From NCBI GenBank assembly GCA_976551045.1, contig CDPCPM010000050.1:2790001-2854000 (forward strand): a stretch of DNA of 64,000 nucleotides. Reading direction: 5' to 3'. The notes below the pieces were generated by a model. It saw nothing but the letters and a program-made list of their open reading frames with translations. It was not told where the DNA came from and did not search any database. Below are positions 5,596-49,973 of the stretch, piece after piece (position 1 is the stretch's first letter; each line of letters starts with the position of its first letter). The translations under genes were made by a program, and so were the position numbers. Source of the stretch: Glaucostegus cemiculus. Taxonomy: Eukaryota.

Positions 5596-5609
5596 CTGCC
5601 ATCTGCTGT
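5596..5609 (-). promoter_or_regulatory. Candidate CTCF site (ACAGCAGATGGCAG)
   Basis: Near match to the CTCF core. Homologous to the sites at 11680, 24451, 35992 and 49960. Confidence 0.45.
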
Positions 5610-7170
5610 TCAAGTCGCACATGACATAAAGTTCATGACACCAAGAAATACTGACAGTTCCATGACACTCTGTATCACGCCACACGTGACCGGAATTTTG
5701 GGAATCCACCTGAACGTGAATGACGAGATCCTACTGGGGATTCCAGACAGTTTTCAGACATGGAATTCTACGTAGAGTTGGGGTGAAGTCCATAAGTGAA
5801 GAAGAAAATCATTAAAATCACACGGTTAAGCTGGCAAACAAAACGACAGGGATCAGCCCATTATTTTGAATCAAGATGAAAGGCTGCGCAGGACAATGAT
5901 TAGTCTGAGGTAATCAAAATGTTTTGGGTTAACTAACCTTGTTTTACAGTTTTTTAGATGTTAAGCTAACTTGGCTAATATTTATATTTTTCAGTTTTAA
6001 TCACTTCAATTTTTATTCCATTGTTCATCGGCTCACAATAGATTTCGAGCCTTTCTACATTTCAGGAACATTCAGCAGCGTCTAACGTCCGCGAGGCTTT
6101 CACAGCCGACAAAACTTCAAAGCTATTTTCAGTCTTGCATTTCAGACTGAAGAACATCAGCGTTCACAGGACATCGCGGAATCCTCAGAAATTAAGTCCA
6201 CGCTTCCCTGTACGTCATTGAACAGCACTGCTGGCTTGGTAACATATTCTGGCGTGGTTCTCGGTAGAGTAACAAAACGACTTGTTTTGAAGAGGGTGTG
6301 GAATTATAAATTAATATACAGATACATTGATACATAAATATCAGAGGCTTGGGAATGACCCAGGTTCATACACGTCAATTTTCTGACGAAGCGCAATTCA
6401 TGAAAATGCATAAACGTGTTATTTGTAAATTATTTCAGAGCAACGTTCATTGATAATCGGCTGTCACAGAAACACGATCTCTTTGACTGGCCAGTGTAAT
6501 GATCAGGTAAAGAGAAGTACGCAGAGTTGCGAGTCAATTGGTCTATTTTACACCCACAAGGGAAGTGCATTGGGAATGTTTTCCGCAGAAAATTCTGTGG
6601 AAGATACCTGCATCAAATGAAAGGAGCAGGAAAGAATGCCACAAGCGGATCATGTGACAAGTTATTACGCACTCATTGGATTAAATTCACCGTAATATGG
6701 GCGTGCAGAGATGTATGTTATACTATAATATTTCAAAAAAGAGATTTCAAAGTGTAGACAAACTTCAGACAAATATGTTCCTGTCATTTGATTCCTACCT
6801 AACTTCAGTGCAAATCTTTAGAGTCCTTTTCCGGTGTATCCAAAGAATATTTAATATAATATTTATGACTACTTGCCACAAGCAGCCAGACATGTCAGAA
6901 TAGTTCGGCATCCTGGACGAGCAGAGAGACACTAATCATTCGACCGAACTTCACAAGTGCTCACAGAATCTAAATTAGACACCCGCAGACCAACGATATC
7001 TATACAGAGAAGAATGAATGGGAAAGAGAACTCCAGAGACATGGAAGAAAATTCTTCAGTTTGTTAACACATCTTCAATGTGTGCTAGGCGCTCTTTGAT
7101 GCAGTTTAAGGTGGTTCGTAGGAATCATATGCCCAAGGACAAGTTAGTCCGTTTTTATCATCATATAAAT

Positions 7171-9019
7171 AGAACAATAGAACAATACAGCACAGAACAC
7201 GCCCTTCGGCCCATCAAGCTGTGCCATCCTACAAACATCTCCCAAACTAACTCTTTCCACCCTCATATCCTACTATTCCACATTCTTCCATGTGCTTATC
7301 TAACAATCTCTTAAACCTGTCCAACGTATCTGCCTCCACTGCCACCCCAGGCAGTGCATTCCATGCACCAACCACTCTCTGGGTGAAAAACTTCCCTCTG
7401 ACATCTCCCCTATACTTTCCACCTATTATCTTAAAGGCATGCCCTCTCGTCTTGAGCATCTGCGCTCTGGGAAAGAGGCGCTGACTATTAACTCTATCTA
7501 TTCCTCTCAATATCTTAAACACCTCTATCAAGTCCCCTCTCATCCTCCTCCTCTCTAATGAGTAGAGCCCTAGCACCTTAAGCCTCTCTTTATATTCCAT
7601 ACCCTCCAATCCAGGCATCATCCTGGTAAAATGCCTCTGTACCCTCTCCAACGCCTCCACATCCTTCCTATAATGCGGCGACCAAAACTGAACACAATAT
7701 TCCAAGTGCGGCCTAACTAGAGTTTTGTAAAGCAGCATCATCACCTCTCTGCTCTTGAACTCAATCCCTTTATTTATAAAAGCCAACATCCCATAAGCCT
7801 TCTTAACAGCCCTATCCACCTGCGAGGCAACTTTGAGTGAACTGTGGATATGAACCCCCAGATCCCTCTGCTCCTCTACACTGCCAAGAACCTTACCATT
7901 TACCTTATACTCTGTCCTGGAGTTTGTCCTCCCAAAGTGCACCACCTCACACTTCTCCGGATTAAACTCCATCTGCCGCCTGTCAGCCCATTTCTGCATC
8001 CTATCAATATCCCCCTGTAAGCTCCTACAGTCCTCCACACTATCTACCACACCACCGATCTTGGTGTCATCTGCAAACTTACCAACCCATCCCTCCACTC
8101 CTTCATCCAAATCATCTATGAATATAACAAAGAGTAGAGGCCCCAGAACTGATCCCTGCGGGACTCCACTAGTCACAGCCCTCCAATCCGAGGGCACTCC
8201 CTCCACCATAACCCTCTGCCTTCTACAGGAAAGCCAATTTCTTATCCACACAGCCAACCTCCCCTGGATACCTCGACCTCTGACCTTCTGAAGAAGCCTG
8301 CCATGAGGAACCTTATCGAACGCCTTACTAAAATCCATATACACTACATCCACCGCCCTGCCTTCATCAAGCTTCCTCGTCACCTCCTCAAAGAACTCTA
8401 TCAGGCTCGTGAGGCAAGATCTTCCCTTCACAAAGCCATGCTGACTGTCCCTAATCAGTCCATGACTCTCCAAGTGCTCATAGATCCTGTCCCTCAAAAT
8501 CCTTTCCAACAGCTTACCTACCACAGACGTGAGGCTCACCGGTCTGTAATTTCCCAGACTATCTCTACTGCCCTTCTTAAACAAGGGAACAACATCCGCT
8601 ACTCGCCAATCCTCCGGCACCATCCCCGTGGACAACGAGGACTCAAAGATCCTCACCAGCGGATCAACAATCTCCTCCCTCGCCTCCCGAAGCAGCCTGG
8701 GGAATATTCCATCGGGCCCCGGAGACTTATCAGTCTTGATACTACTTAACAATTTCATCACCTCCTCCCTCTCTATAGCTACATACTCAAGAATATTACC
8801 CTTGTCAGCACTCACTGTCACATCATCAAGGCCCCTCTCCTTGGTGAATACAGAGGAGAAGTATTCATTAAGTACCTCCCCTACCTCTGCCGCCTCCAGG
8901 CACATCCTCCCACCTTTGTCCTTAATAGGCCCCACCTTTACCCTAGTCATCCTTCTGCCCTTCACATAAGAGAAAAAAGCCTTGGGATTTTCCTTAACCC
9001 TACGAGCCAACATCTTGTC
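7171..9019 (-). mobile_element. Young 5'-truncated CR1 LINE with an uninterrupted ORF2 3' half (RT domain)
   Basis: ORF reads KSPGPDG...NYRPVSLTS...QHGFVKGRSC...YMDFSKAFDKV...GVPQGSVLGP...KFADD...RPHLEYCVQFWSP with no stop. 3' (ATTGTTCT)n tail at 7171-7186. Possible AAAT TSD. Confidence 0.95.
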
Positions 9020-9319
9020 AAATACTATATGTGACAGATGTAATTGGAAGGTGGCTTCCCTGACACATATGTTTTGGTCTTGTCCTCTTTTGGAAAAATA
9101 TTGGAAAGACATTTTTACCATCTGTACTGAATATTGATTTACAACCTCATCCTATCACTGCAATTTTTGGGTTACCGATGATGGCATCTCGCCATTTATC
9201 TGCCTCTGCTCGTCGTATGATCGACTTTGTCACATTAATGGCCAAACGATCTATTTTGTTCAAAAGGAAAGATCCAATACGTCACACCACGTTTCAGTGT
9301 TTTTCTCAAACTATAGCAT

Positions 9320-10760: not shown

Positions 10761-11679
10761 TTAGTTACAGGACATTCCATGCGGCCGAGAAGTAGAGCTG
10801 TGATTTCCTGAAAATCTGAAGAACGATGCTTGGGGACTTTCCGCGAGATCCCTGAATTCGTTTATCTAATAGAGTCTGTGGATGCAAAAGGGGAAACAAA
10901 GGTACGTTACTTTTTTTATTTGTTAACTTTATATTTCAATTAATAATTATTTTAAAAACTTTCACGTTTTAGGGGTTAATTGTTGATATTTTAATCAGGT
11001 TTAAATAAAAGCATGAAATTCCTCGTAATGTTTTCCGAATGTCAGAGAAATTCAGACACAGAGAAATTTCTGGAAGTTTGATCTAGGGCAGAGTTTGAGC
11101 TGGGCACCAACATTGGCAACGCATTGGAGACAGTTTTCACGAACGGGGCCTGCTTGGCCATCACAAGATGCAGTTATTTCATCGGGAATTGTGTGTGTAA
11201 CAGGTAAGGAAAATGTAAATTATGTTTGGTTCAATTATTTCTTTTCTGGTTGAAGGTTCCGCCGCACTCAGCCGTTCGCTACTTGGTTCTAGGTCACCGT
11301 CGGACAGCGAAATAGGCCTTCCAGACCCGGAGGAAACAAGTTCGGTGGGCGTTGATTGTGGATGGCATATCGTGTCTTCACTCAGGAAACACGGGGACAA
11401 AAGATGACATCATCACTTATCAGTGTTTATCTCCACCTACCATGATTTTGTTAATCACTTTAGGGTCATGTGATACTTTCGGAGCCCTTGAAGATCGGTT
11501 CTGTTCAATGTAAATTACTGCTCGTTACTCTTACTTTAGTCGAAGTATGGAAATGCCTCTTCAATGAATTTTCAAAACAACATATGACTTCATTGTCCAT
11601 GTTAAATGCAAATTGTCGACATATTGAAGTAAATAATTTTTTTACTCATCATTCATATGAAGTAAAACGTGATGCATTC

Positions 11680-11693
11680 GCGCCAACTTCAGG
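11680..11693 (-). promoter_or_regulatory. Candidate CTCF site (CCTGAAGTTGGCGC), weaker copy
   Basis: Paralogue of 35992-36005 with one core change. Confidence 0.35.
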
Positions 11694-14600
11694 TGACACA
11701 TGAAACACAGACCACAACATGCCGAGAAATGTTGGCAGTTCATTGTCGAGTTGCCGGTATTTACCATGCCACATGTGAGAGGAGTTAGGTGAATCTTAGG
11801 AAAACGTGGATGACTTCAACTTATTGACAACACTCTGACCGTGGATTCCAGAAAGTCCTCAGACATTGGACTTCACATGGAGTCCATATGAAGTCGAGCA
11901 GCGGACAAGAAAATTCTTACCCTTTCCGGTAGTTACCCCAGTAAATCTGTACACGAACCACTAGCCCGTTCATCTGAATCAAGATTAACGCTAACGAGGG
12001 AAGGTTTAATTTTTGAACTAACCGAACTTGTGTCACTGTTTTCGAAACCTGTTTAACAATTAAATGAACATATGTGCATATTCCTTAATTTTAATAACTT
12101 CAAAATAATTTGAAATGATTCTTTCTATTGCATCATAATGTTATTCCATTTCGCCTGCGTATCAGGAATGTTCAGCAGAATGCAAAATCCGTGAAGACTG
12201 TCACAGCCGACAAAAATTCAAAACGGATCTTTTTCAGTCTGGTCTTTTCCGATCAATGAACACAAAGGAGTAATACAACTCCGGGTATCCGCAGAACGTA
12301 AGTCCACACTTGCCGCACTCCATTTACCAGCTCAGAAGGCTCGCCACTGGTAGCACGATTGGGCCTATCTCCCAGGCAAGGCACATTTTGTTTTACTTGG
12401 GAAATGGTCCTTATCAAAATGTTAGTGAGTTAGGGAACGAGTGGAGGTTGATGCCTCTGAAGTGAAATTCATTCTGTACCATTGAACCACGCGATGAGTA
12501 CACAACACAGTTACATGTAACGCAGATTGTGAGATCACTAACAATCTGCCGTCACAGAATCAACGAGCTCACAGGTTATCCAGTCTAATCTTTAAATAAA
12601 GGGAAGGATGCAGGAGTTAAATTACCAGTCCTTATTACGCCAATCAGGAAAGCGCATTGTGAGTGTCGTCTCTGGAAATTTCTGCTGAAGTTAAAACCTA
12701 AAATGGAAAAAGCAAGTATTCCATGAAAAGATCTGTGACAAGTTATTATACACACGTTGGAGCACATTCACCATCATACCGGTGTGATGTGAGCAATGAG
12801 AGGTGAATATTATATAGCAATATTTCAGAAATGAATTTCAAGGCATCATGCAGCAGGCACATTGCCCAGGACATACTTCTGTCATTTTACTCTCAGTTAA
12901 CTTCCGTGTGGGTCTAAACAAACCTTTCCTCATATATCTGGGGAAACCGCAACAATATATCTCTGAGACATAAGAGACGGCAGAAGCTGGATCATGAGGA
13001 CCAACATCTGGCGGGACACAGTGGGTCGTGAAAATCTCAGGGAACTTGCACCGTGCAGACACACATGTCAGAATAGCATGGAAGCCCGAAGAGGAGAAGA
13101 ACTGATCAGTAGAGCAAAATTGCAACCATCCCGTCCCACAGCCCCCACCCCACACCATCACCAAAGAATCAAAATTACCATGGTGAAATTATCACGGAGA
13201 AAGTAGGGGCAATGGCCCGAGGGTTTGGAACTGTAGCTAAGGTGGCAAGTTATTTTTCTTCAGCTGTTTATACCATTGCGGAGTGCATGTCTCTGCTGCA
13301 TGGAAAAGCTCACAATGTGAAAATTCAGGGAAACCCAGGAAGTTGTCCTTGTTCTCCTGACAGGAAATAATCCTCATACTATGTTCTGAAGGAAATAAGT
13401 GGGTCATTGCCTCATTGCTGTTTATGTTGGCCCTCTACCAGATACTTCCAAATTTTACAACGAAATTAAAGGAGGCCATTCCACCCGTTGAGACTATGCT
13501 GTCCGTTGAGACTATGCTGTCTCTCCCAGTAATCTCAATGTTCCCATTTTCCAATTATTTCTGCAATTCATTGTTTCATATTTGCTATCCAATACCCCCC
13601 ACAGTAGGGATAATTTGCCGCGGCAAACTAACATAACAACAACCCATCTTTGGAGGAAACCGGAGGACGGGGAAACTGGAAGCGACGAAAAGAACCTGAG
13701 CAGCGCACACTGACAGTGCACACAGGATCGAAACTGGGTCTCTGAAGGTGTGAGGCAGTGTCACTACCTGCAACGTAGCTGTGCCGCCCACCATTTTCTA
13801 TCGCAGGATACACCTTGTAATCCAGGAGTATCGCTGCGTCAGAGATTCTGTAAGACTCTGTCCAGACCTTTTATATGATCCATGAACTGGTTCATCGGAA
13901 TGAAGATTGTGGGTGTAAAGAGGAAGGGAAATGTCAGTTAAGTTTCGCTTAATTATTTAATTCATGTTTCATATATTTAATTATTTGAATCTCATTTTAG
14001 TAGTTCAGTACTTTTATTTACCATCACTTTAATAAGGTTTAAATTAAAACATTTAATATGTTACACTGGTTCTAAATGTTAGAGGATTTCAAAAGCAGTT
14101 CCAACAGTTTATCCGACAGCCAAGCTGAGAACGGGTTTCCCTGTGTCAAGGGCTTCAAGGTGGGTTTTCATAGAGTTGCCAGTTCTGGACATCAGAAGAT
14201 GCCAGTCCATCATTCAACTCTCTGGGCACTCAAGACTTCTGCTGCTTGTCTCTGCGACACTCTCGGCCAGAGAAATTGGACTTCCAGGACCAAAGAAGGC
14301 AAGTTCAGCAGCCGGCGAGATTGGGTGCCAACTCCGCTCCCAAACAGGAACCCGCGACCACAAGTCGACTCGATCATTCTCCACGCTCATTTGCACGTTT
14401 ATTTTCCTCAATCACTAAACCGTTTCCCCACCCCCCACCCCCTAATTTTTACCAGTCGTTGACGTTACATCATTTAAATACAGTTTTGGACAAAATACTG
14501 AATCATGTCTTATGACCCCAACTGAACTCCGCTCAACTGGCCAATCAGAGAAAAAACCCTCAAACATTTCTTTCCGTCCTCTGCCTCCCAACCAAATGCC

Positions 14601-15670: not shown

Positions 15671-15993
15671 TTAGGTACAGCTGGATCTCGCGATCATTGT
15701 CTTAAACGGGTTTGCCTGAGTCTCGTGTTTAACCACACGGGAGTAAAGCTCGTGTGAGTTCCAGGCGGAGGCTGGCAGAGTCAGGTAACTGCTCGCACTG
15801 AACGTGTTGTCCGTGTCCTGCTGGACGCGGTTGGTCTCAACGCCATTCTTCCTCGCACTGCCGTCCACGGTCCACTCAATGTCCACAGCGCCCGGGTTAA
15901 ACCCGCTCACCAAGCACACCAGGGTAGCGGTTCTCTTTCTCGTCATTTCTTCTGCTGAAGGCCGGAGGACGGTCACCGCAGGTGGTCGCGGAC
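15671..15993 (-). pseudogene. IGL: IgL constant exon, cluster 2; open frame but second Ig-fold Cys changed to Arg; partner VJ has a stop
   Basis: PRPPAVTVLRPS...ATLVCLVSGF...W...SSYLTL...HELYSRVVKHE...RSSCT*. Acceptor ttttcAG at 15994-15995, 323 nt like the other C exons. CGT at 15737-15739 where the paralogues have TGT. Confidence 0.9.
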
Positions 15994-18900
15994 CTGAAAA
16001 TAGAATCAAACGCAGGAAGGTCAATTATTGATTGGCATCCAAGTCTGAATCAACCCGTGTTGTCTTCGATGTCATTGGATTCCTATGAAATCTTCGTCAA
16101 AGAAACATCATTAATACAACTTACAGAGCAAGAGAAGCCCAGATGCTTGCAAATATTATAATATGACAATATTTTCTGAATACCGACACCTGGCATAAGA
16201 CAATATCAAATCTTCTTCAAAGAAAACGAATTAAACCTTCGCATATGTCCAATGTCATAATTTACAGCTCCCTCAAACATATCGCAGATTTATCTATTTT
16301 GTTCCATTTCCTTTACTTATTTGACTTTTAAATAGAATTTGGAACCGAAACTGAAGGATTCAGGGAGTATTGTGAACACGAAAGATTAAAATCACTCTGT
16401 ACACCAACTCAATGTCACGTTTTCTTCTGAGCTAAGTTTCCGCAGAAGATGTATCCAGGGAGCTGTACATTTAATGCAAAGAAAATCTGAATTTTAGTTA
16501 AATATTCAGTAATGCTATCTGGAAAGATAGTGTAACACTCATCTCAAATCATTCGGCTCTATTCACTTTACTACTATCTTTGTTTGTTTCTTTTTGACTC
16601 AAGCTCCAACAGATTTTGAAGAAGATGGCAAAATGCTATTTGACTATCCGTGAGACCTGCTGTTAATCAGTGCCTGAACCGCTTATCAATTGGCCGTCTC
16701 TTCCAGGTTCCCGCCCGCGCCCAGTGAAGAGTACATCAATCAAAGGTTGCAAGGACTTCCCAGCAATCACGTCTCACGAGCAATCTGCTTCTCGGGAACA
16801 GATCCAGAGCCAGGGGGTGGGGTCACACATGTCATTTCAATAAAGACAATCATCTTACAATAAATAACGTGTGTTTCTCAACAAATATGTCAATACCAGA
16901 AATGATTTTATGGAATTAGCCTATCATTGAATCCAAAAATATCCTTGCCAATATGTATCAATCGTCCCACACCGATGAAGCAAGTCTCCCTTCACATTCA
17001 CATTGCTATTTGTGGGAGAACACTGTGCGCGGATTATTTGTGCTATTCTCCAAATTGCTGTGCTGGATAAACTTAAAGTGCGTTGGGACCCTCTCACGTG
17101 CAAAGACACATCTCAGCAACACGGGGGATCCCACGCAGGCGACAAATCTCTTGCTGTTCTGAGGATTCGCCTTCAGATCCACAAATTTACCTCACTTTCA
17201 ATCCCTTCAAGTTTGTAAATTGTAGTGCGAGTCAAAAATAGTTTGACAGTTAACTACTTGACAGTGGCCCGGAATACGTATTTCCCAATATGGATGATTA
17301 ATGAAATGATATATGATTTAAGACAATGTATTTTTTTAAATATCGCGCGTTTCCAGTTTCAACCTAATGTAGCAGAATGATAGTTACTAATTGATAATAG
17401 TTAAAATCGCGACAGGTTACCGACGTGTTCTGAGGTATTCAGCTTCCTAGGTGAAAATAAAACATACAGGTCCAAAATCTAATATTGATGTACAAAAGCT
17501 CTGGAATAGTAGTCAGGATTATTCATATTGGGAAAAGTGAATAAAAAGATATAATACTGTGGCCCGAGTCTGTATAATATGCGCTTCCTGTGTCTGATCT
17601 TGAAGGTGATCTGGAAGATAAGCGACAGTTGCAGAAATTTGCAACGTCCCCTTAAATATATTAATATTAATAATGTTTGAATCGAATTAAGACGTATCGT
17701 ATATGCTTTTTTAAAATATAACTTTGGCCAAACATTAACTTCAACAAGATTTAGGGACCGTGTATAGGATTGTAAACAGACCAAAGACAACCCGACACTC
17801 AGTCACTCAGAAGTTGAAAGCCCAGGAAGAAGTCGTTCTCGCAGCCCGAGATTTGAAAACATAACTCGTCATCTGTCTTCGTAGATTTATCTACTACACT
17901 AAAGCCTGATCTGCATTGGGTTTTTAGATGGGGTACAACACGCTCTCACTACACCTTGGGGGGGGGACCTTAATTTCTTTCAGTATTTTTCAAATAATTA
18001 CAATAACACCCGTTTAAGAAGCACTTTTAACGGCGTAAGATATCGCAAGGGAACAATCCAAGACAAAAATTGAACCCAACATTAGAAGATACCAAGCCAA
18101 AGGAACAGAATTTTGGAACAAAGAAAACGGAGTTCAGAGGATTTTACGTGGCATGGCGCGGGGGAAGCTCAGGCGGAAGCTAGAAAAGTTACGATGGCGA
18201 TGCTGAGGAAGAAGAAACAAATTTCCAGCTCGATAACTTACTCCGCTTTGCTCCTACTTCATTTCATCCACTAGTGAAAACTCCCCAATGCCTTTGCTCC
18301 CCTGACTTTCCTGGTCCACTCTCAAGCCTCGCAATACTGGTAAAATCTCAACAAAGGCTCTTTGACATCTCCAGGTTTAAGCAGCATCAAAAATTTATCA
18401 AACGTCTTTTTTATTTATTCATTAAATCTCATCGGACATTGACTCTACATAATACATTATATATGCAATGATTTCACTTCAACTAAGTCTCTTTGCCAAG
18501 TAAATGGATTTTCTATTTTTAGTCTGTAATGTTCAAAACATTAGGGGACAAGTGCGTTTGAAATCCGAATGAAATAAATTGACCATAGATACCACTGTTG
18601 CAAGGATTTTTAAAAAAATTAAAATAGGATACTTTGGAAGATATTTGCTTCGGGCGTAGCTCATGGTACCACGTTCCTATATAATGTTGCCAAATAACAG
18701 TTAATTTTGTTGGATATTGAACTGTCGGTGACACAAATCATAGGACGAGTAGGAAAGCCGAATGCCGGTAATAACATGAAGTACTCAAACTCCGCAAGTG
18801 TTTTCGGAGATAATCATAAGATCAAATCAAACTGGCTGTTGATTGTTGTGTTGCCCTAGTGTCTACTCTCGTAGATGAGTGACTGTTCTGGCAAATGCAC

Positions 18901-19369
18901 GCCATGCCCTGGAACATTTGCAGTTATAAATTCTCCCAACGGGTTTAATGGGAATTAACAAGGTATCCGATTATTTTAGATTTCCTTTTTGGATTGATTC
19001 TGGTCATACATTTCAGCGACGCTCTAGAGAAGGGGGTTGAACCAGTTTGTAACAATATGCGAGGCACATAGAATTCCCAAAGGAAGTCCATCTCGCAACC
19101 CCGGCTTCTTGAAACTTAGTTCAATATGTGCCCTTTCAATTGTTATCTTACTTCTTCTTCGAGCTTGTCATGCACTCTGCTTGATCCTGTGTTGGAGCTG
19201 AGGCACTAAACGTTCTTTTATAATATAGTGCGTGAACCCTCATTTCTCTAGTAATTGTAATACCTTCCATTGCCATAACGTTGTCTGTGACACAGAATGT
19301 CCTATAGCAAGATTATTTAGTTGCCCTTTTGAAGCCAAGGAGAGAAGACTATATCAAATGACAGGAGCA

Positions 19370-19700
19370 GATTTTTAGGCAAAGTCGTATCGTTTTAGGA
19401 GTCGTTCGAAGAATAAAGAAACAGAGGCAGCGAGACAGAGAGGATAAATGTCAGAGGGTCGGAGATGACTAGGTGGAAGGTTGTCAGCTCTCAGGACGAC
19501 TTGATAACAAAGATGAAAATGATTAAGTGGAGACATCGTTTAACTATGAAAATGTACGTCAACAAGGATAAACGGGCGTGAGTCAGGACAACGAGTACAG
19601 TGTTTTGGATAACTGCAAATTTGTGGAATAAAGAGAGAGGAAGAGAGCGTCTGGAATAATTTAGAAATCAAGTCAGGTGATTTTGCGGAGATGGAAATGT
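19370..19700 (-). mobile_element. Decayed L2-like LINE relic in the J-C intron; paralogues at ~1-60, 31210-31630, 44890-45230, 56380-56780 and 58000-58430
   Basis: The best preserved copies show gaattccagagcttgg...cagctgaaagc, resembling an elasmobranch L2 3' region by recall only. Confidence 0.4.
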
Positions 19701-20182
19701 GCTCGCTATTTTAAGCTCAAAAACATCCTCGCTTCTCTGGCGCAGCGCAACTGCTGCTGCCAGCTCTCCTCGCCGCTGCTGCCTCCACTCTTGTTGTTTC
19801 GCTTCTGCTCTCGAAGCTAAATCCTCGTCATGGCAAATCAAAAATCGTTTCTGTGCTCACTTCAAAACTTTACACTGTCTCTTATATCAGGCACTTAGTG
19901 TGTTTGGTTATTATTTAAAGCCTCCCGGACGCTGAATTTCAAAGTCTACGTAAATATATTTTGATGACATTAATTTTTACTAAATGTCTTTCACTCCACA
20001 AGGCAAAGGGATATTTTTTAGTTCTTACTATTGGGAAGATTTGATATAAACTTCACGAGCGATGTGTAAACAGATCGAAAAAATATTTCGCCCTGATACT
20101 GTTGTCCGATTACTATCAACTGACGGGGTAAACAATCCAAAGCAGGTGATTGACACATTCCCACTTTCAAAAATTAACTTAC

Positions 20183-20515
20183 TGTTCAGATTCCGCTTGG
20201 TTCCTTTTCCGAAGGCAGATGTATTACTAGCAACCACAAGGCAGTAATAATCGGCGGCGACCTCCAATTGCAAGTTGGTGATGGTTAATTGCATCTGGTT
20301 GCTGGAAGTGTCCGAGGAACCGGTGAATCGATCAGGAATTCCCGAAGCTCTGTCGTTGACGATATCCCATACCAGGACCGGAGGGCTGTCAGCTTTCTAC
20401 CTGTACCAGCTCGCCCCGATGCCACCTCCTGATATGGTACAGGTGATCTGAACGGTTTTCCCCGGCGAGGTTGAGATAGACGGGGACTGATTCACGATTA
20501 GCTCCGTGTTTATGG
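20183..20515 (-). pseudogene. IGL: Germline-joined VJ exon, cluster 2, with in-frame TAG in FR2
   Basis: [62 protein letters not shown]...[26 protein letters not shown] at 20397-20399. Splice sites intact, 333 nt. Confidence 0.95.
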
Positions 20516-20605
20516 CTGAGGAAATATCAAATTCATCTTAGAACCGTTTAATATATCAGCACAACTTAAATAACAGTAGTGCCAATGATATGAAGTTTTA
20601 CTTAC

Positions 20606-20654
20606 CGTGGAAAGAGAGCAGCAACGCGGCAATGCCCCCAATCCACGGCGCCAT
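20606..20654 (-). pseudogene. IGL: Leader exon, cluster 2: MAPWIGGIAALLLSFH (intact, part of a pseudogene cluster)
   Basis: ATG at 20652-20654, 49 nt, GTAAGT donor, 90-bp intron. Confidence 0.9.
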
Positions 20655-22720: not shown

Positions 22721-24450
22721 AACGAACTTGCTATTTAATGCAAAGCTTCCGTTTCAAAGCTGAATTCCTCCCCTGCATCGCAGTTTCATCTATTAGGAGT
22801 CATCCGTATGTCACGTCCCAGCGGTGGAACGGACACACTGAAGTTTCTGACAGTCTCGGGATGCATATTTGGGAGGAAATAGGCCTAGGAGTAATCAGCA
22901 CTAATTTCAGGCCCAGTAAAATCTTAGATCATGGGTGAAGCTTTTACAGGGGAACTACTTATTACTTATCACCTGTTGCTTTCGACCTGCTGATGAATCA
23001 GTATTGCTCCACGTCAAACACTATGTGGAAGAAAGATTGAGGATAACAAGCGATCCATGCAGTTGCGCGGAGAACCACGAAAATAATAAAGGTTGCCTGG
23101 TAGTAAACTGCCAGCTTGATCTCACTGAACGTCGAGTAGCAGAGCAAGCAGTGGAGGAAAACAAATCTTTGACTATCATTGGTGTGTTTATTAAATACAT
23201 TATTCATAACATTATCCGCCACACAATACCTATGTTATCGGGGTTTAGCGTCATGATAAATGGTTCGGATGGAAAACAGAATTACTGCCTTAAAATAAGG
23301 CACCCAGGCGGCCCTTTGCACCATTAACAGTAGGAAAATTCATTCAAGCAAAGTCCTTACGGTTGGTATATTCCTCATTTTTCTACTAAACCTTGCTCGA
23401 CAGTCAGTATAGAGCAGCCTCCCGGGAGCATCGGCAGATGCACCTGGATAGTAAATGCCAATCTGAGAAGCAGCAATAGCTTCTAATGTGCAGAAATAGA
23501 AACTTATGCACCAGTGTTTCGCCGTCTGCGGTCCACAGGCCACAACCAGTCGGTGAGATGGAAGGCGTGCACTTCTGCCACATCCAGTCAGTAAACGTGG
23601 CAGAGACTTTAAAAAGCATTGGAATGTGTGATTCCATGAACACGATGCTAGAAAGCAGAATGTTAACGCGAGAAAGACTGAACCATTTTCAATTCTCTCC
23701 AGCCTAAAATACCAACTGCATGCATTACTTCGGCCTCCTTTTAAGATCCCAACTATCACATGACCCAAGTTTCGGTCAACACAATAAATTCCATATGATA
23801 TCAATAAATGATCAGCCACACGAGGTGTGGTAAAAACAGGAAGTTGGACAATATCCTGACTGTGGTACTGAATATCCAAAGAAGTCTGATAGAATTTTAT
23901 TCATCCCCTCTCGCCTTCAACGTTTATTTCCTCTGGGCAAATACCTCAGAATGTCCATTGCATTCTTAACGTTTTTCTAACACTTCTGATGCAACTAATG
24001 GCTGTTATAATGATTGTATTCGAAGTCAGACGGAACAAAGAATAGAAAGCGAGCTCGTGGCTGGGATGAAAGTAATTTATCAAACGCATACCGTTCTGAC
24101 TAATTCGGTCAAATGTTTCAGTGTATAAAGTTAAGTTATTCTCACTTTGGGTTTGGGCGACTGGTCGGCAGCAGAGACACAGCCGATCACGTATACTTAC
24201 TTAAAGATAGATTGAAATGTGGTTATTCCTGTGCAGATATGGTTTGTCCTCTGAGGTTACGGATGCGTGCGCATACATCTCCAAAAGCTGCGGAACTCAG
24301 ACTCCTTATTGTTAGTATTGTTGCTGAATTATCCTAAACGGGTATAAAATAGTTATTGGTCGTATTACTAACGGAAAATCAGTTCCTTGTCGATGCTAAC
24401 TGGAAATTGTTTTACGCACCGGCAGGTGAGAAATATTATGCGATACGTTT

Positions 24451-24464
24451 CTGCCATCTGCTGG
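24451..24464 (-). promoter_or_regulatory. Candidate CTCF site (CCAGCAGATGGCAG)
   Basis: Matches the CTCF core consensus CCASYAGRKGGCR. Lies between cluster 2 and cluster 3. Confidence 0.58.
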
Positions 24465-32435: not shown

Positions 32436-32522
32436 CTGGTGAAAGGCAAATTAATGTTAGAATCGTCAAATATCCGCACAATGTGAAATGCAGCGATATT
32501 TTGGATTATGCATTGTCCTTAC

Positions 32523-32571
32523 TGTGGAAACAGAACACCAGTGCGAAAAGACCGCGCATCCATTCAGCCAT
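32523..32571 (-). CDS. IGL: Leader exon, cluster 3: MAEWMRGLFALVFCFH
   Basis: ATG at 32569-32571, 49 nt, GTAAGG donor, 87-bp intron, in frame with the VJ exon. Confidence 0.92.
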
Positions 32572-35086: not shown

Positions 35087-35991
35087 TTTGGGAGCAAGTT
35101 TTCACAATATCGCCGGGAAGTTACTAAACAATAAGCCTGCCCATTTACAGCATTCTAGAACAATTGACGTTTAACTTGACTTGCACTTTTTTTGTTATTT
35201 TTCACTTGAAGTTTTACCTGCGGAAGTTGTTTAAAGTTCACTGAGAGTACGGTTTAGCCGAACTAGTGCCTGGTCTCATCGGGCCCTGCAAACAATGTGT
35301 CTCATATATTCGCACATTGCCTTTACTGAATTGCGAAAAATTGTCCTGGGATCGATAACGGTGAACTTCTGTGTTCCTCACTTTCGAGATTCTTTTCCTA
35401 GCGGTGCCATTTCCGGAATGTATCAGGAGTTCTCCGATCCCGCTGTGCCAGTTCTACGAGCCAATTTATTTAAATTGGAATTCCGCAGCAGTGCGGAGGA
35501 ATGTTCAGAACAAAGTTACGGGCATTTTAAAACACGTCTTTTGTTATAATTTTTAACAAGTTAATTTTCAAACCTCTTTAATGAATTTTGAAATCTTATT
35601 GATTTTTCTCAATACTTTATAAATACGTTTGTCAGTCACAGACATCCAAATATTCGTAAATGTCACAGGGCACAAAGTTGACGCCTGAAGGTCTGTCTCA
35701 GTTTCCAGAGGATCTTCGTGAATGGTTTGGCTTTACCTACCTCGGCCAGTTCCGTTGTTCGACGCTAAGCTAACGCACAGAGCTTCCAATCTTAGGGTCA
35801 TCTGATACTTTAGGAGCCCTTGAAGATCAATGTAAATTACTGCTTGTTACTCTTACTTTTACCGAAGTAAGATAAGGGCTCATCAATGAATTTTCAAGAC
35901 GTCCTTGTCCATGTTAAATGCAAATTGCCGACATATTGTTGGAAACAATTCTTTTTCTCGTCAATCATATGAAGTAAAACGTGATGCATTC

Positions 35992-36005
35992 GCGCCACCT
36001 TCAGG
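35992..36005 (-). promoter_or_regulatory. Candidate CTCF site (CCTGAAGGTGGCGC)
   Basis: CTCF-compatible core at the position homologous to 24451 and 49960. Lies between cluster 3 and cluster 4. Confidence 0.5.
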
Positions 36006-36202
36006 TGAACTCGCACATAAAAATCAGACCACAACACGCCGAGAACTGTTGGCAGTTCATTGTATTTACATGCCACATGTGAGAGGAGTTATGTGAATCT
36101 GAGTAAAACGTGGATGACCTCAGCTTATTGACAACACACTTACTGTGCATTTCAGAGAGTCCTCAGATATTTGATTTCACATGGAGTCCATATGAAGTCC
36201 AG

Positions 36203-40311: not shown

Positions 40312-40634
40312 TCACATACAACCGGATCTCGCGATGTTTGTCTTAATGGGGTTTGCCTGAGTCTCGTGTTTAACCACACAGGAGTAAAGCTCATGTGAGC
40401 TCCAGACTGAGGCTGGCAGCGTCAGGTAACTGCTCGCACTGAACGTGTTGTCCGTGTCCTGCTGGACGCGGCTGGTCTCAACGCAATTCTTCCTCGAACT
40501 GCCGTCCACGGTCCACTCAATGTCCACAGCGCCCGAGTTAAACCCGCTCACCAAACACACCAGGGTGGCGGTTCCCATTCTTGCCATTTCTTCTGCTGAA
40601 GGACGGAGGACAGTCACCGCAGGTGGTCGCGGAT
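40312..40634 (-). CDS. IGL: IgL constant exon, cluster 4; open frame with an extra Cys (RKNCVE); partner VJ is a pseudogene
   Basis: PRPPAVTVLRPSAEEMARMGTATLVC...YSCVVKHE...RSGCM*. Acceptor at 40635-40636, 323 nt. Confidence 0.92.
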
Positions 40635-42118
40635 CTGAAAATAGAAGCAGACGCAGGAAGGTCAATTGCTGATTGACATCTAAGTCTGAATCAACCCACG
40701 TTGTCTTCGATATCATTAGGTCCCTATGAAATCTTCGTCCAAAGAAACATCATTAGCACAACTTGCACAGCGAGAGAAAACCAGATCCTTGCAAAGATTA
40801 TACAATGGCAATATTTTCTGAATACCGACACATGGCATAAGACAATATCAAATCTTCTTCAAAGAAAACAAATTAAACTTTCGCACATGTCCAATGTCAT
40901 AACTTACAGCTCCCTCAAGCATATCACAGATTTGTCCATTTTATTCCATTTCATTGACTCATTTGATTTTTAAATGGAATTTGGAACCGCAACTGAAAGA
41001 TTTAGGGAGTATTGTGAACATGAAAGATTAAAATCACGCTATGCACTAACACTTTGTCATGTTTTCTTTTGAGATAAGTTTCCGCAGACGATGTATCCAG
41101 GGAGCTGTGCATTTAATACATATGAAATCTGAATTTTAGTTAAGTATTCAGTAATTCTGTCTGGAAAGATAGTGTAACACTCATCTCAAATCATTCGGCT
41201 CCATTCAGTTTACTACTAGCTTTGTTTGTTTATTTTTAGCTCAAGCTCCGGACAGATTTTGAAGAAGATGCTATTTGGCTATCCGTGAGGTCTGCGGTCA
41301 ATCAGTGCCTGAACCGCTTATCGATTGGCTGTCTCCCACCCGTGTCGAGTGAAGAGTACATCAATCAAAGGTTGCAAGGACTTCCCAGCAATCGCGTCTC
41401 ACGAACAATCTGCTTCTCGGGAACAGATCCAGAGTCGGGGGCGGGGGTTGTCACAAATGTCATTTCAATAAAGACAATCATTTTACAATAAAAATCGTGT
41501 GATTCTCAACAAATATGTCAATACTAGAAACGATTTCATGGAATTAGCCTATCATTGAGTCCAAACATATCCTTGCCAATATGTATCAATAGTCCCACAC
41601 CAATGAGGCAAGTCTCCCTTCACATTCACATTGCTATTTGTGGGAGAACACTGTGCACGGATTATTTGCGATATTCTCCAAATTGCAGCGCTGGATACAC
41701 TCGAAGTGCGTTGGGACCGTCCCACATGCAGAGACGCATCTCAGCAACACGGGAAATGCCGCTCAGGCGACAAATCTCTTGCGGGTCTGAGGATTTGTCT
41801 TCAAATCCACAGATTTACCTCACTTTCATTCCCTTTAAGTTTGTAAATTGTAGTGCAAGTCAAAAATAGTTTAACAGTTAACTCCGTGACAGTGGCTCGG
41901 AACACGTATTTCCCAATATGGATGATTAATGAAATTACATATGATTTAAGAGAATGTATTTTTTTTTTACTATCGCGCGTTTTCAAGTTCCAACCTGATG
42001 TAGCAGAATGATAGTTAATAATTGATAATAGTTAAAATCGCGGCAGGTTACCGACGTGTTCTGAGGTATTAAGTTTACTAAGTGAAAATGCAACATAGAA
42101 GTACACAACCTAATATCA

Positions 42119-42987
42119 CAAGATCACAAGACAAGGGAGCAGAAGTAGGCCATTCAGCCCTTCGAGTCTGCTCCATGAGAAAAGAAAAGATAAAATATCT
42201 ATCCCCAATTTCCAGCCTTATCCCCATATCCCTTGATACCTTGATTAATTAGGTACCTATCCAACTCCCCTTTAAATGCCCCCACTGACTGAGCCTCTAC
42301 AGCTGTATGTGGTAGAGAATTCCACAACTCCACCACCCTCTGACGAAAGTAATTTCTCCTCATCTCTGTTTTAAACTGGTTTCCTGTGATTCTAAGTCTG
42401 TGCCCTCTAGTCTTGGACTCACCCATCAAGGGAAACAGCTTTTCCACATCCACTCTATCCATTCCCTTCAACATTCTAAATACTTCTATGAGGTCCCCCC
42501 TCATTCTTCTGTACTCCAACGAGTACAGTCCAAGAGCCAATAAACGCTCATCATAGGTAAGCACTTTCATACCAGGAATCATCCTTGTAAACCTCATCTG
42601 GACCCTCTCCAACATCAGCACATCCCTTCTAAGGTGTGGGGCCCAAACCTGTACGCAGTATTCCAAACGAGGACGTACCAGTGCTCCATAGAGCCTCATC
42701 ATCACTTCCCTACTTCTATACACTATACCTCGCGAAATGAACGCCAACATAGCATTCGCTTTCTTTATCACCGATCCGACCTGGTGGTTGACTTTTAGGG
42801 TGTCCTGCACGAGTACCCCAAGTCCCTTTGTACTTCCGTACTTCCAATTTTCTCCCCATCTAGATAATAATCTGCCTGTTCATTTCTTTTGCCAAAGTGT
42901 ACTACAGCACATTTGTCAACATTGAATTTCATCTGCCATTTCTTTGCCGATTCACTTAACCTATCCAAGTCCTATCCATTGATATCC
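42119..42987 (-). mobile_element. 5'-truncated CR1 LINE in the cluster 4 J-C intron
   Basis: ORF 42199-42810 (KANAMLAFI...LVRPRLEYCVQVWAP...RGDLIEVF). (TCTTGTGA)n tail. TSD AATATCA at 42112-42118 and 42988-42994. Empty paralogous site at ~17481. Confidence 0.93.
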
Positions 42988-45706
42988 AATATCAATGTAC
43001 AAAAGCTCTGGAACAGTATTCAGGATTATACATGTTGAGAAAAATGCAAAAAAAGATCAAATATTGTGGCCCTGAGTCATGAATATGCGGTTCCAGTGTC
43101 TGATCGTGAAGGTTATCTCGCAGATAAGCGACAGTTGCAGCAATTTGCAAAGTCCCCTGAAATATATTAACATTTATAATGTTTGAATCGAATTAAAACG
43201 TATCGTTTATGTTCTCTTAAATATAACTTTGGCCAAACATTAACTTCAACAAGATTTAGGGACTGTGTATAGGATTGTAAACAGGTCAAAGACAACCCGA
43301 CACTCAGTCACTCAGAATCTGAAAGCCCATGAAGAAGTCGTTCTCGCAGCCCGAGATTTGAAAACATAACTCGACATCTGTCTTCGTAGATTTTTTTTTA
43401 ATCTACCGCACTTTAAAGCCTGATGTGCATTGGGGTTTTAGACCCAGGGTACAACATGTTCTCACAACACCTTGGGGGAAGTACCCTAATTTCATTCAAT
43501 GTTTTTCAAATAATTACAATGATGCCCATTTACGAAACACTTTTAACGGCGTAAGATATCGCAAGGAAGCATCACAAGACAAAACTTGAACCCAACATTA
43601 GAAGATCCCAAGCCAAAGGAACAGAACTTTGGAACACAAATAACGGAGCTCAGAGGATCTTACGTTTGTGGAGCATGGAGCGGGAGAAGCTCAGGCGGAA
43701 GCGGGAAAAGTTACGATGGCGATGCTGAGGAAGAAGAAACAAATTTCCAGCTCGATAACTTACTCCGCTTTGCTCCTACTTTATTTCATTCATTGGTGAA
43801 AACTCACCAATGCCTTTGCTCTCCAGACTTTCCTCGTCCAATCTCAACCCTCGCAATACTGGTGAAATCTCAGCAAAGGCTCTTTGACCTCTCCAAGTTT
43901 AAGCAGCATCAAAAAGATTTTCAAACGTCGTTTTCTATTTATTCATTAAAGCTCATCGGACATTGACTCCACATAAATATATTATATAGGCAATGCTTTC
44001 CTTTAACCTAAGTCTCTCTGCCAAGCAAACAGATTTTCTATTTTTGGTAGGTAATGTTCAAAAAATCAGGGGACAATTCCGTTTGATAACCGAATGAAAT
44101 AAAATGACCATTGATATCATTGCTGCAAGGATTTTTTTCAACTAAAATAGGATGCACTAGAAGATATTTGTTTCGGCATATCTCATGGTACCACGTTCCG
44201 ATATAATGTTGCCAAGTGACAGTTAATTTTGTTGGATATTGAACTGTCGGTGACACAAATCATAGGACGAGTTGGGAAGCCGAATGCCGTTATTAAAATG
44301 AAGTACGCAATCTCCGAAGGTATTTTCGGAGATATTCATAAATGCAAATCGATCTGGCTGCTGATTGTTGCGCTGCCCTCCTGTCTAATCTCGTAGATGA
44401 GCGATTGTTCCGGCAAATCCACGCCATGTCCTGGAATATTTACAGTTATAAATTCTTCCAATGGGATTAATGAGTATTAATAAGACACCCGATTGATTTA
44501 GTTTTGTTTTTAGGGTTGATTTCGGTCATGCATTACAGCGGCGCTCTAGAGAAGGGGGTTAAACCGTCTGTAAGACAATGCGAGACACATAGAATTCCCA
44601 AAGAAAGTCCATCTCGCAATCCCCGCTCCATGAAACTTAGTTCGATATGTGTCCTTGTCAATTATCATTCTACTTCTCTTTAAAGCGTGTCATGCACTCT
44701 GCTTGATCCGGCGTTGGAGCTGAGGCACTAAACTTCCTTTAAAAAATTTGCGTGAACAAAACACCCTCATTTCTCCTGTAGTTATAATACCTTCCATTGC
44801 CGTAACGTTGTCCGTGACACAGAATGTCCTCCAGCAAGATTATGTAGTTGCCCTTTTGAGCCAAGGAGAGAAGACTATATCAAGTGACAGGAGCAGCTTT
44901 TTCGGCAAAGTCGGATCGTTGTAAGAGTCGTTCAAAGGAAAAAGAAACAAAGACAGCGAGGCAGAGAGGATAAATCTCAGAGGGTCGGAGATGACAGAAA
45001 TGGAAGTTTGTCAGCTCTCAGGACGATTTGATAACAAAGATGAAAATGATTAAATGGAGACATCGTTTTACTATGGAAAATGTACATTAAGAAGGATAAA
45101 TGGGCGTGAGTCAGGACACCGAGTACAGTGTTTTGGATAACTGCAAATTTGGGGAATAAAGAGCGAGGGAGGGACAGTCCGGAATAATTTAGAAATCAAG
45201 TCAGGTGATGTTGCGGAGATGGTAATGAGCTCGTTATTTAAGCTCCAAAACATCCTCGCCTCTCTGGCGCAGCAGAACTGCTACTGTCAGGTCGCCTCGC
45301 CTCTGCTACCTCCACTCTTGTTGTTTCCCGTCTGCAGTCTAACCTAAGTCCTCGTCATAGCAAATCAGAAATCGTTTCTGTGCTCACTTCAAAACTTTAC
45401 ACTGTCCCTTACATCAGGCATGTTGTGTGTTTGGTCATTATTTAAAGCTCCCTGGACGCTGAATTTCAAAATCTACGTCAATATATTTGGATGACACTAA
45501 CTTTTACTAAAAGTCTTTCACTCCACCAGGCAAAGGGATGTTTTTCAGTTCTTAATATTGGGAAGACTTGGTAAAAACTTTACGAATGATGTGTAAACGG
45601 AGCGAAAAATTGCGCACGGATACTGCTGTTCCAATACTATCAACTGATAGAGTACACAATCGAAGACTGGTAATTGACACATTCCCACTTTCAATAATTT
45701 ACTTAC

Positions 45707-46039
45707 TGATAAGATTCAGCTTGGTCCCTTTCCCGAACGTAGATATATCACTAGCAACCACAAAGCAGTAATAAACAGCGGCGTCCTCCCATTGCACGTT
45801 GGCAATGGTTAATTGCATCTGGTTGCTGAAAATGTTCGAGAAACTGGTGAATCGATCTGGAATTCCCGACGCTCTGTCGTTGACAATATCCCACACCAGG
45901 ACTAGGGGGCTGTCGGGTTTCTGCCTGTACTAGCTCGTCCCCGTGCCACCTTCTGACATGGTACAGGTGATCTGAACGGTTTTACCCGGCGAAGTCGAGA
46001 TAGACGGGGACTGAGTCACGATTAGCTCCGCGTTTATGT
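45707..46039 (-). pseudogene. IGL: Germline-joined VJ exon, cluster 4, with the conserved FR2 Trp changed to TAG
   Basis: [62 protein letters not shown]...VYYC-FVVASDIST-FGKGTKLNLI. TAG at 45930-45932, 333 nt. Confidence 0.95.
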
Positions 46040-46129
46040 CTGAGGAAATAACAAATTCATCTTAGAGACGTTTATTGTATCAGATCAACTTAAAGAACAG
46101 TAGTGGTAATGATGTGAGGTTTTACTTAC

Positions 46130-46178
46130 TGTGGAAACAGAACAGCAACGCGGCAATGCTCCCAATCCATCGCGCCAT
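46130..46178 (-). pseudogene. IGL: Leader exon, cluster 4: MARWIGSIAALLFCFH (intact, part of a pseudogene cluster)
   Basis: ATG at 46176-46178, 49 nt, GTAAGT donor, 90-bp intron. Confidence 0.9.
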
Positions 46179-48240: not shown

Positions 48241-49959
48241 CTGAATTTGCGCTTTAATGCATGCAAGACTTCCGTTTCAAAGCTGAATTCCTCCCCTGCA
48301 TCGCAGTTTCATCAACCAGAAATTATCCGTATATCACGTCCCAGCGGTAGAAGGGACACACTGAAGTTTCTGACAGTATCGGGATGCATATTTGGGAGGA
48401 AATAGGCCTAGGATTAAAAAGCACTAATTTCAGGACCAATAAAATCTTAAATCGTCGGTGAAGCTTTTACAGGGGAACTACTTATTGCTTATCACCTATT
48501 GCTTTCTACTTGCTGATAAATCAGAATTGCTCCACGTCAAACACTATGTGGAAGAAAGATTGAGGGTAACAAGCGATCCATGCAGTTGCGCGGAGAACCA
48601 CGAAAATGATAAAGATTGCCTGGTAGTAAAATGCCAGCCCGATCTCACTGAACGTGGAGTGGCAGAGCAAACAATGGAGGAAAACAAAACTTTGACTGTC
48701 ATTGGTGTGTTTAATAAATACATTATTCATAACATTATCCGCCACACAATACCTATGTTATCGGGCTTTAGCGTCATGATAAATGGCGGCCCTTTGCACC
48801 ATTAGCAGTAGGAAAATTCATTCAAGCAAAGTCCTTACGGTTGGTATATTCCTCATTTTTCTACTAAACCTTGCTTGACAGTCAGTATAGAGCAGCCTCC
48901 CACGAGCATTGGCAGATGCACCTTTATAGCAAATGTCAGTCTGAGAAGCAGCAATAGCTTCTAATGTGCAGAAGTAGAAACTTATGCACCAGTGTTTCGC
49001 CGCCTGCAGTCCACAGGCCACAACTAGTCGGTGAGATGGAAGGCATGTACTTCTGCCACATCCAGTCAGAAAATGTGGCAGAGACTTCAAAAAAGCCTTG
49101 GAATGTGTGATTCCATGAACAGGATGCTGGAAAGCATAATGTTAACGCGAGAAAGACTGAAACCTTTCCAATTCTTTCCAGCCTGAAATATCAACTGCAC
49201 GCATTACTTCGGCTTCCTTTTAAGATCCCAACCATCACATGACCCAAGTTTCGGTCAATGCAATAAATTCCACATGATATCAATAAATGATCGGCCTCAC
49301 TAGTTGTTGTAAAAACAGCAAGTTGGACAATATCCTGACTATGGCACTGAATATCCAAAAAAGTCTGACAGAATTTTATTCATCCCCTCTCGCCTTCAAC
49401 GTTTATTTCCTCTGGGCAGAAATCTCAGAACGTCCATTGCATTCTTTATGTTTTTCTAACGCTTCTGATGCAACTAATGGCCGTTTTTATGATTGTATTC
49501 GAAATCAGACAAAACAAAGAACAGATAGCGAACTCGTGGCTGGGATGAAAATAGTTTATCAAACGCATACCGTTCTGACCAATTAGGTCAGATGTTCCAG
49601 TGTATAAATTTAAGTTTTTCTCAAGGTGTACTTTGGGTTTGGGCGACTGGTCAGCAGCAGAGACACAGCCGAGCATTTATACTTAAAGATAGATTGAAAT
49701 GTGGTCATTCATGTGCAGATATGGTTTGTCCTCTAATGTTATGGATGCGTGTGCATACATCTCCAAAAGCTACTGAACTCAGATTCCTTGTTGTTGTTAA
49801 TGTTGTTGCTGAAGTATCGTAAACGGGTATAAAATAGTTTTTGGTCGTATTGCTAACGGAAAATAAATTCTTTGTCGATGCTAAATGGAAAATTGCTTCC
49901 CTATAAAATAAATAATTATGTTACGTGCCGGCATGTGAGTAATGTTACGCGATACGTTT

Positions 49960-49973
49960 CTGCCATCTGCTGG
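49960..49973 (-). promoter_or_regulatory. Candidate CTCF site (CCAGCAGATGGCAG)
   Basis: Core identical to 24451-24464. Lies between cluster 4 and cluster 5. Confidence 0.58.

Follow-up and report, generated by a model that had tools for sequence, protein, structure and literature searches.

Candidate CTCF-type boundary sites between germline-joined lambda light-chain clusters of a ray

A CTCF-type motif recurs between the clusters of an immunoglobulin (Ig) lambda light-chain array in the ray Glaucostegus cemiculus. As judged from the sequence, its copies are likely to be working CTCF sites and boundaries between light-chain mini-loci, copied with the gene unit as the array grew; the probability of this reading is put at roughly 55%. 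Because the key letters of the site were kept while the surrounding DNA drifted, the site probably isolates every gene from those next to it. The initial annotation of this DNA had proposed CTCF identity, an insulator or loop-anchor role and a device by which pre-joined genes choose one cluster. The sequence tests support the first two proposals and leave the third unsupported. A literature search found no paper on per-cluster CTCF-type sites of this kind.

The lambda array and its CTCF-type sites

The window (the whole stretch of 64,000 nucleotides that was analysed) belongs to an array on the minus strand of contig C50 that comprises 12 clusters of germline-joined lambda light-chain genes (Table 1). 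In 12 of the 12 minus-array V exons, V runs into F(G/A)KGT. No RSS match was found at the V exons of either lambda array of the contig, minus or plus strand, and all V exons of both are pre-joined. The window promoters carry boxes that we take to be E-box-, octamer- and CRE-like. The clusters are lambda-like L-VJ-C units, self-contained and of 8–18 kb each, with the features of cartilaginous-fish lambda (type II/NS3) germline-joined light-chain genes as classified in PMC4279169.

Table 1. Genes, CTCF-type cores and one repeat remnant of the window; the higher coordinate of each gene row is the leader ATG
Feature	Position	Strand	Score (bits)	Remarks
Leader + germline-joined VJ exon	554..1039	minus		Open frame; C outside window
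CTCF-type core	5594..5612	minus	16.9	Upstream-motif letters partial; 4.6 kb before leader ATG 1039
Reverse-transcriptase (LINE-type) remnant	7247..9151	minus		Flanked by both sites of the first spacer
Decayed CTCF-type core	11678..11696	minus	10.4	Core column 11 is T; 5 bp deleted immediately upstream
Lambda cluster L-VJ-C	15671..20654	minus		Probable pseudogene: VJ (20178–20504) with in-frame stop; second Cys of C read as Arg
CTCF-type core	24449..24467	minus	21.1	3.8 kb before leader ATG 20654; 4.6 kb after C exon 29078
Lambda cluster L-VJ-C	29078..32571	minus		Frames open; VJ 65% identity to sandbar shark lambda chain
CTCF-type core	35990..36008	minus	16.7	3.4 kb before leader ATG 32571
Lambda cluster L-VJ-C	40312..46178	minus		In-frame stop inside VJ (45702–46028)
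CTCF-type core	49958..49976	minus	21.1	3.8 kb before leader ATG 46178; 3.9 kb after C exon 53884
Lambda cluster L-VJ-C	53884..59400	minus		Frames open
Sixth, diverged copy	63910..63928	minus	11.0	4.5 kb before leader ATG 59400; flanks fit family profile

The five 14-mers listed by the initial annotation, on the minus strand at 5596, 11680, 24451, 35992 and 49960, were found there and nowhere else in the window. Their described placement also holds. Collinear matches of about 1.4 kb on the C side, together with a core-masked flank profile that recovers all five, put them at the same aligned point; those at 5596, 24451, 35992 and 49960 lie upstream of leaders at the distances claimed; and each of the four complete spacers carries a site, one of them two, the decayed core being the second copy within a partly duplicated spacer. 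The sixth copy, absent from that list, sits in the partial fifth spacer. The match to the CTCF consensus stands for four of the five 19-mers, which take ranks 1–4 of the window, and is weak for the 11680 copy, which is rank 14 among 17 window matches of at least 9 bits. All bit scores rest on a reconstructed version of matrix MA0139.1, which covers the ZF3-7 core.

Across the whole minus array, a homologous co-oriented site is present in 10 of 11 spacers, with one more upstream of the first cluster, and the 13 copies in all are of common ancestry, every one on the minus strand. The flank profile test yielded no homologue in the 3′-most spacer, which was scored as a miss because the flanks of site 2709586 (10.3 bits) failed this test. 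Copy 2872491 was found with its core masked, the core itself scoring 16.3. The four most diverged copies retain only the core and about 15 bp on each side; they were not linked to the main family by core-masked profiles and were linked to it by an ungapped flank profile. An origin as a dispersed repeat or transposon was rejected: matches that cover the site occur only on C50 inside the array, and the 40 matches outside it cover query bases 349–401 only, which correspond to a repeat beside the element.

The scores stand above background. None of 600 column-permuted matrices gives a same-strand best match of at least 16.7 bits in all four window spacers. Over the minus array the best co-oriented match reaches at least 14.5 bits in 9 of 11 spacers, the opposite strand doing so in 2 of 11, and 0 of 600 permuted matrices attain nine spacers (maximum 5). 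Minus-strand matches number 12 in 200 kb, whereas resampled DNA gives 0.7 per strand and the neighbouring 240 kb of non-Ig DNA 3–4 per strand.

The upstream ZF9-11 motif of CTCF sites, set off from the core by a 5–6 bp linker, is optional and occurs at 13–15% of sites. The full set of its letters (T, G, C/T, T) occurs in 8 of 13 copies versus 4.6% of 305 control matches, a post hoc comparison on related copies; in their strict form the four letters are complete in 1 of 13. The combination of the core, T-G-Y..T letters at the 5-bp-linker position and a location between transcription units resembles the enhancer-blocking IL3 insulator and its upstream motif, as portrayed in PMC12885311. In contrast to that insulator, the window copies have a degenerate upstream motif and are putative insulators.

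Possible insulation and enhancer tethering

As boundaries, the sites would each be bound by CTCF and cohesin. Such a site, situated after the 3′ end of one cluster and before the next cluster's promoter and oriented in the direction of transcription, would stall loop extrusion. The stalled extrusion would block the spill-over of enhancer action or active chromatin, and activating one cluster would then leave its neighbours off. Expression of one cluster at a time would presuppose such insulation, but the insulation would not itself do the choosing. Tandem CTCF sites insulate according to PMC7087399, and skate TADs rely on oriented CTCF according to PMC10115646.

Several observations count against this reading. 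The plus-strand lambda array of the same contig is poor in strong sites, with a co-oriented match of at least 14.5 bits in 3 of 23 spacers (1 of 15 in its distal part), although most of its V exons are open. The 3′-most spacer without a homologue counts against an insulator too, as does the orientation of the sites at another light-chain locus, C436, which point back at their cluster, the opposite of the window sites. Loops of 8–18 kb are, moreover, small for insulation by extrusion.

The site could instead be the tether of a local composite enhancer, some 250 bp long, which forms a loop with the adjacent promoter about 4 kb away; its effect would then be to assist activation and not to block it. 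Across the three window lineages, a block from about −215 to +70 is indeed alignable, much of the spacer being not; it contains words that we take to be E-box-, NF-kB- and Myb-like, and the site is directed at the next promoter. Against this, the reduction of the four most diverged copies to little beyond the core and the fact that the block is not clearly better conserved than other islands further upstream make an enhancer tether unlikely.

A possible role in cluster choice

In a protocadherin-like mode of choice, the co-oriented sites would act as rival loop anchors; in each B cell one of them would be captured by a distant enhancer that the clusters share and that has opposing sites, and the capture would select the cluster to be expressed. 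At protocadherins, every promoter contains a CTCF site that faces a common enhancer bearing opposing sites. Unlike such promoter sites, the ray sites lie about 4 kb upstream, in units that each have their own C exon. Their distance to the next V exon is at least 2.3 kb and mostly 3.6–4.7 kb, outside the promoter, and near the window leaders no CTCF match of at least 10 bits was found, leaving the promoters without one. The two best-scoring sites precede V exons with stops. A scan of 240 kb past the 3′ end of the array, which left out 300 kb of the gap, revealed no cluster of strong opposing sites; the 4 plus- and 3 minus-strand matches of at least 14.5 bits in these 240 kb are scattered and at background level.

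The distribution of sites also argues against choice, since strong ones are missing from most plus-array clusters and since RSS-bearing heavy-chain clusters, which rearrange, carry paralogous CTCF-type sites as well. The claim that pre-joined genes need the sites to pick one cluster is left unsupported by these two points and by the location outside promoters. In favour of such a choice, all 13 sites have the same direction, the weaker plus-array sites face them across a 630-kb gap, and every V exon of both arrays is pre-joined. Clustered protocadherins likewise form a tandem array in which each unit has a single co-oriented CTCF site and expression has to be restricted in each cell (PMC7087399, PMC3333863), and at Pcdh and Igh the use of promoters is balanced by co-oriented sites in tandem (PMC7087399). 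On balance, protocadherin-like choice is judged distinctly unlikely.

Retention of the core against neutral decay

The copies share one ancestor and are, for this reason, not independent. It could be supposed that the ancestral unit held a single chance CTCF-like word, which was copied along with the clusters and has no function, a supposition in keeping with the decayed 11680 copy and with a sister array that does without strong sites. Raw identity is equivocal. The 19-mer is more conserved than its flanks in three of six lineage pairs (18/19, 16/19 and 14/19) and equals them in the three pairs that involve the CCTGAAG lineage (11–12/19), so that conservation equal to the flanks, an outcome that the initial annotation would take as refuting its proposal, is seen in part. 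Of the 19 core columns, 11 do not vary among the three lineages of the window, compared with 40% overall; eight flank stretches also reach at least 14/19, and the core forms no peak there.

Across nine copies, 14 parsimony changes spare columns 5, 7, 9, 10, 12–15 and 19 (P=0.006, permutation). They avoid the informative columns of CTCF. On the flank tree, with a length of 2.1 substitutions per site, a mean score of about 1 bit would be left after neutral decay, as against 17.3 observed; at the flank rate the observed mean was kept in at most 0.04% of 20,000 simulated runs (P<=4e-4), and in the most lenient simulation (core at half the flank rate, perfect starting site) P was 0.17. These results, and the failure of permuted matrices on the same duplicated DNA ever to reproduce the pattern, render passive inheritance improbable. 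Binding of the word by another factor is highly improbable: CANNTG, an E-protein word, lies in or beside the 19-mer in 9 of 13 copies and ATGGC, the YY1 core, in 6 of 13, but the E-box takes three different core offsets and is missing in four copies, ATGGC is missing in seven, and the invariant columns are those of CTCF.

Comparison with other Ig loci and known systems

In mammalian antigen-receptor loci (IGCR1, 3′Igh CBEs, V-associated sites), CTCF-type sites also organise an Ig locus, some of them 3′ of the constant region, according to PMC10293834, PMC7826415, PMC3920468 and PMC3499808. The mammalian sites shape one large rearranging locus, whereas the ray site repeats with each never-rearranging L-VJ-C unit. 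Skate TAD borders, with divergent CTCF sites, come from the same animal group, and the C157 light-chain locus of the ray has a divergent arrangement between clusters; according to PMC10115646, skate TADs have a median of 800 kb, while the ray units are far smaller and the window sites tandem, not divergent.

Both other light-chain loci, C157 and C436, have their own per-cluster CTCF-type sites, each family being confined to its locus. At C157, reverse-forward-forward sets follow four of the four fully seen plus-strand clusters. At C436, a site comes after 6 of the 9 C exons on the plus strand and after none of the 7 on the minus strand. The IgW locus has CTCF-type sites with the upstream motif. 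No homology was demonstrated between the window family and the C157, C436 or IgW sites (C157 flank P ~0.07).

Cartilaginous fish have up to hundreds of small side-by-side Ig clusters, and rearrangement is almost only intra-cluster (PMC4279169). Expression of their receptors seems to be clonal, for which limiting factors and rare promoter-enhancer assembly have been proposed as the cause in PMC2435157, a paper in which the word 'insulator' is absent. In the pre-joined lambda genes, rearrangement cannot do the excluding. A tentative generalization is that shark and ray Ig clusters might be CTCF-bounded mini-domains, gained or reshaped separately in several isotypes, which would form the physical basis of cluster autonomy. 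If this were true, the mini-domains would be marked at lambda by tandem sites, at C157 by divergent sets, at C436 by reverse sites and at IgW by upstream-motif sites; they would confine recombination within a cluster and let pre-joined genes switch on singly. The candidate sites at cluster borders provide exact coordinates for testing three-dimensional insulation as the basis of autonomy, with the sister array, mostly without sites, as a built-in contrast. The outcome would bear on the relation of the cluster layout to the single CTCF-organised loci of bony vertebrates.

Two minor observations may be added. The one IgNAR-like cluster covered, at C132, lies between two sites that face each other (21.8 and 18.4 bits), a single case at background density that was not counted as evidence. 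The letters TATCAC after the core are common to the window family and the C157, C436 and IgW sites.

A family of oriented CTCF-type sites between lambda clusters

The five CTCF-like motifs reported between lambda clusters by the initial annotation all lie where it placed them, at one aligned point of the spacers and at the distances from the leaders that it gave; a sixth copy had been overlooked. When the window was scanned with a core matrix approximating the MA0139.1 counts, four of the five were the best-scoring matches. A flank profile of these five copies, with the core masked, recovered two close copies and a distant one (E=8e-7), the latter collinear over 3 kb with a copy upstream of the first cluster that was recovered by a search including the core. 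Four further sites, selected on matrix score and afterwards checked by their flanks, are scored as homologues because their fit to the family profile exceeds that of 98-100% of 305 control matches; a fifth such candidate failed the flank-profile test and was removed. The family comprises 13 members, without exception on the minus strand: one is the copy upstream of the first cluster, and the others are distributed over 10 of the 11 spacers. Searches of the animal's own genome (2.85 Gb) confine the element to contig C50, which carries the window.

Locations of the features discussed (window coordinates unless a contig is named)
Feature	Location	Detail
Family copy	5596	16.9 bits
Family copy	11680	10.4 bits
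Family copy	24451	21.1 bits
Family copy	35992	16.7 bits
Family copy	49960	21.1 bits
Family copy, sixth	63910	
Distant family copy	C50:2872491	16.3 bits
Copy upstream of first cluster	C50:2897421	
Unrelated plus-strand match	38863	16.6 bits
Spacer with two site sub-types	C50:2782925-2780702	2.2 kb apart
TATCAC-like word	24440-24445; C157:2329287	+23..+28 after core
Plus array	C50:1630000-2070000	~25 clusters
Minus array	C50:2700000-2882000	12 clusters
Distant joined clusters	C50:2.075-2.14 Mb	four
Leaders	1039, 20654, 32571, 46178, 59400	
V exons with in-frame stops	20178, 45702	
Partial C duplicate	40017-40245	adjoins C at 40312
LINE-type remnants	3096-4207, 7247-9151, 42199-42879	Pfam RVT_1 in two of three
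Inverted 249-bp element	34836-35084, 36205-36443	88% alike
Repeated site segments	C157:2325332-2498281	L117-L134
Reverse-facing sites, examples	C436:879612, 1061127, 1221987	
IgNAR-like cluster	C132:2251840-2345052	L197-L206

Bare copy counts prove little, because the copies descend from a common ancestor. When these spacers were rescanned with 600 matrices whose columns had been permuted, matches of 14.5 bits or more never extended to 9 of the 11 (maximum 5), and the median best score never came near 16.7 (maximum 13.2). Under neutral simulation (20,000 runs on a tree of length 2.1 built from flanks only), the observed mean of 17.3 bits was attained in 0.04% of runs started from a perfect site and in none started from extant copies; at half the rate, the figures were 17% for a perfect site, 0.7% and 0.1%. 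The 14 changes reconstructed in nine copies fall in tolerant matrix columns (P=0.006), in a test favoured by sampling, five of the nine having been picked for CTCF resemblance. The expectation that the motif is more conserved than its flanks is borne out by raw identity in three of six pairs and not in the others, and in three window lineages the best conserved stretch lies elsewhere than the core. To judge from these sequences, constraint is on the CTCF reading and not on each letter.

One spacer of the minus array contains two sub-types of the site, and the window spacer of 35990 looks like this spacer after deletion of its second site.

Candidate factor and proposed role

The sites of this family are probably genuine CTCF sites. 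Core columns C5, G7, G10, G13 and G14 are invariant. In the IL3 insulator oligonucleotide, an upstream motif precedes the 19-mer by 14 bases (extract of PMC12885311), and the bases contacted in it are named in part of a structure paper (PMC10484683); its T and G are kept in 9/10 and 8/10 representatives (one later dropped), among the best kept upstream columns. A loose four-letter version, a post hoc criterion with degenerate window copies, is found in 8/13 copies vs 4.6% of controls. Shark CTCF has 11 fingers and skate TADs obey the CTCF orientation rule (extracts of PMC7471279 and PMC10115646, respectively). Two other readings are very unlikely: an E-box, in or adjoining 9/13 copies at shifting offsets, and YY1, with an ATGGC-like word in 6/13.

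What these comparisons establish, at the level of sequence, is an oriented CTCF-type site under selection, placed after one cluster's C exon and ahead of its neighbour's promoter. CTCF and cohesin would occupy such sites, which would then curb both enhancer reach and the extension of active chromatin from one cluster to another; tandem CTCF sites can insulate (extract of PMC7087399). Since the neighbours of an activated cluster would not be dragged in, such insulation would fit the proposal that activation of shark Ig genes is rare and single (extract of PMC2435157). We put the probability that the sites act as cluster boundaries at roughly 0.55. That each site tethers a local enhancer is less likely. 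The initial annotation had suggested either insulation or the choice of one pre-joined cluster per B cell; the boundary role is favoured, and protocadherin-like selection of the expressed cluster by its site is improbable because the sites lie outside promoters, both of the strongest stand ahead of V exons with in-frame stops, and the 240 kb of the downstream gap that were read hold background-level matches only.

The element type is known and its arrangement apparently undescribed: a survey of literature listings, mostly outside subscription journals, found no study of CTCF at cartilaginous-fish Ig clusters.

Sites at other immunoglobulin loci

A need specific to pre-joined genes, as originally supposed, is unsupported: the plus array is mostly devoid of strong sites, and RSS-bearing heavy-chain clusters have CTCF-type sites as well. 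Matches of at least 14.5 bits are co-oriented in 3/23 plus-array spacers and opposite in 2/23; nine sites belonging to a weaker family (9.1-17.8 bits) extend over the first part of this array, and the last 15 spacers contain one strong co-oriented match. On contig C117 (200 kb), co-oriented paralogous sites lie 13-20 kb upstream of two heavy-chain V exons that have an RSS-23 at their 3' side, in clusters that we infer to be IgW from their many C domains; the sites have modest scores (14.7-14.9 bits) and upstream-motif letters, and site density on the stretch is near background (4 plus, 2 minus).

On contig C157 (200 kb), a set of three sites of a single family, one reverse and two forward (13.5-21.0 bits; mutual likeness 76-91%), comes after each of the four plus-strand joined clusters seen in full, and a reverse site comes after a fifth, up to the end of the stretch read; three degenerate minus-strand clusters lie among them. 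A 33-letter pattern of this family gave 31 matches, 30 on C157 and one on contig C1480, against 0 in the control. The predicted arrangement is that of a textbook divergent boundary, and the case is stronger than the window's. On contig C436 (200 kb), a reverse site (15.9-23.1 bits) lies ~2 kb after plus-strand C exons in 6/9 cases and after minus-strand ones in 0/7. Comparison of both families with that of the window demonstrated no kinship.

A segment of 0.1-1 kb, present in both inverted and tandem copies, carries the C157 sites. A TATCAC-like word follows the core in the window family (first location in the table, and homologues) and also in the C157 family, which seems unrelated; old homology or an extended binding preference may account for it. 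An IgNAR-like cluster on contig C132 lies between facing CTCF-type sites of 21.8 and 18.4 bits.

Gene content of the lambda arrays

In the window, five VJ exons and four C exons lie on the minus strand; one of the VJ exons shares 65% identity with a sandbar shark lambda chain. All 12 minus-array clusters have a direct V-J junction, and an RSS search of both C50 lambda arrays listed no match. The plus array, on the plus strand, lies tail to tail with the minus array, ~630 kb apart; a V/C search of the 240 kb adjoining the latter returned zero additional matches. About 60-130 bp upstream of the leaders, the promoters contain TCACGT, ATTTGCAT (presumably octamer-like) and TGACGT in constant order. 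The end of the inverted 249-bp element at 36200-36250 matches a genome-wide repeat.
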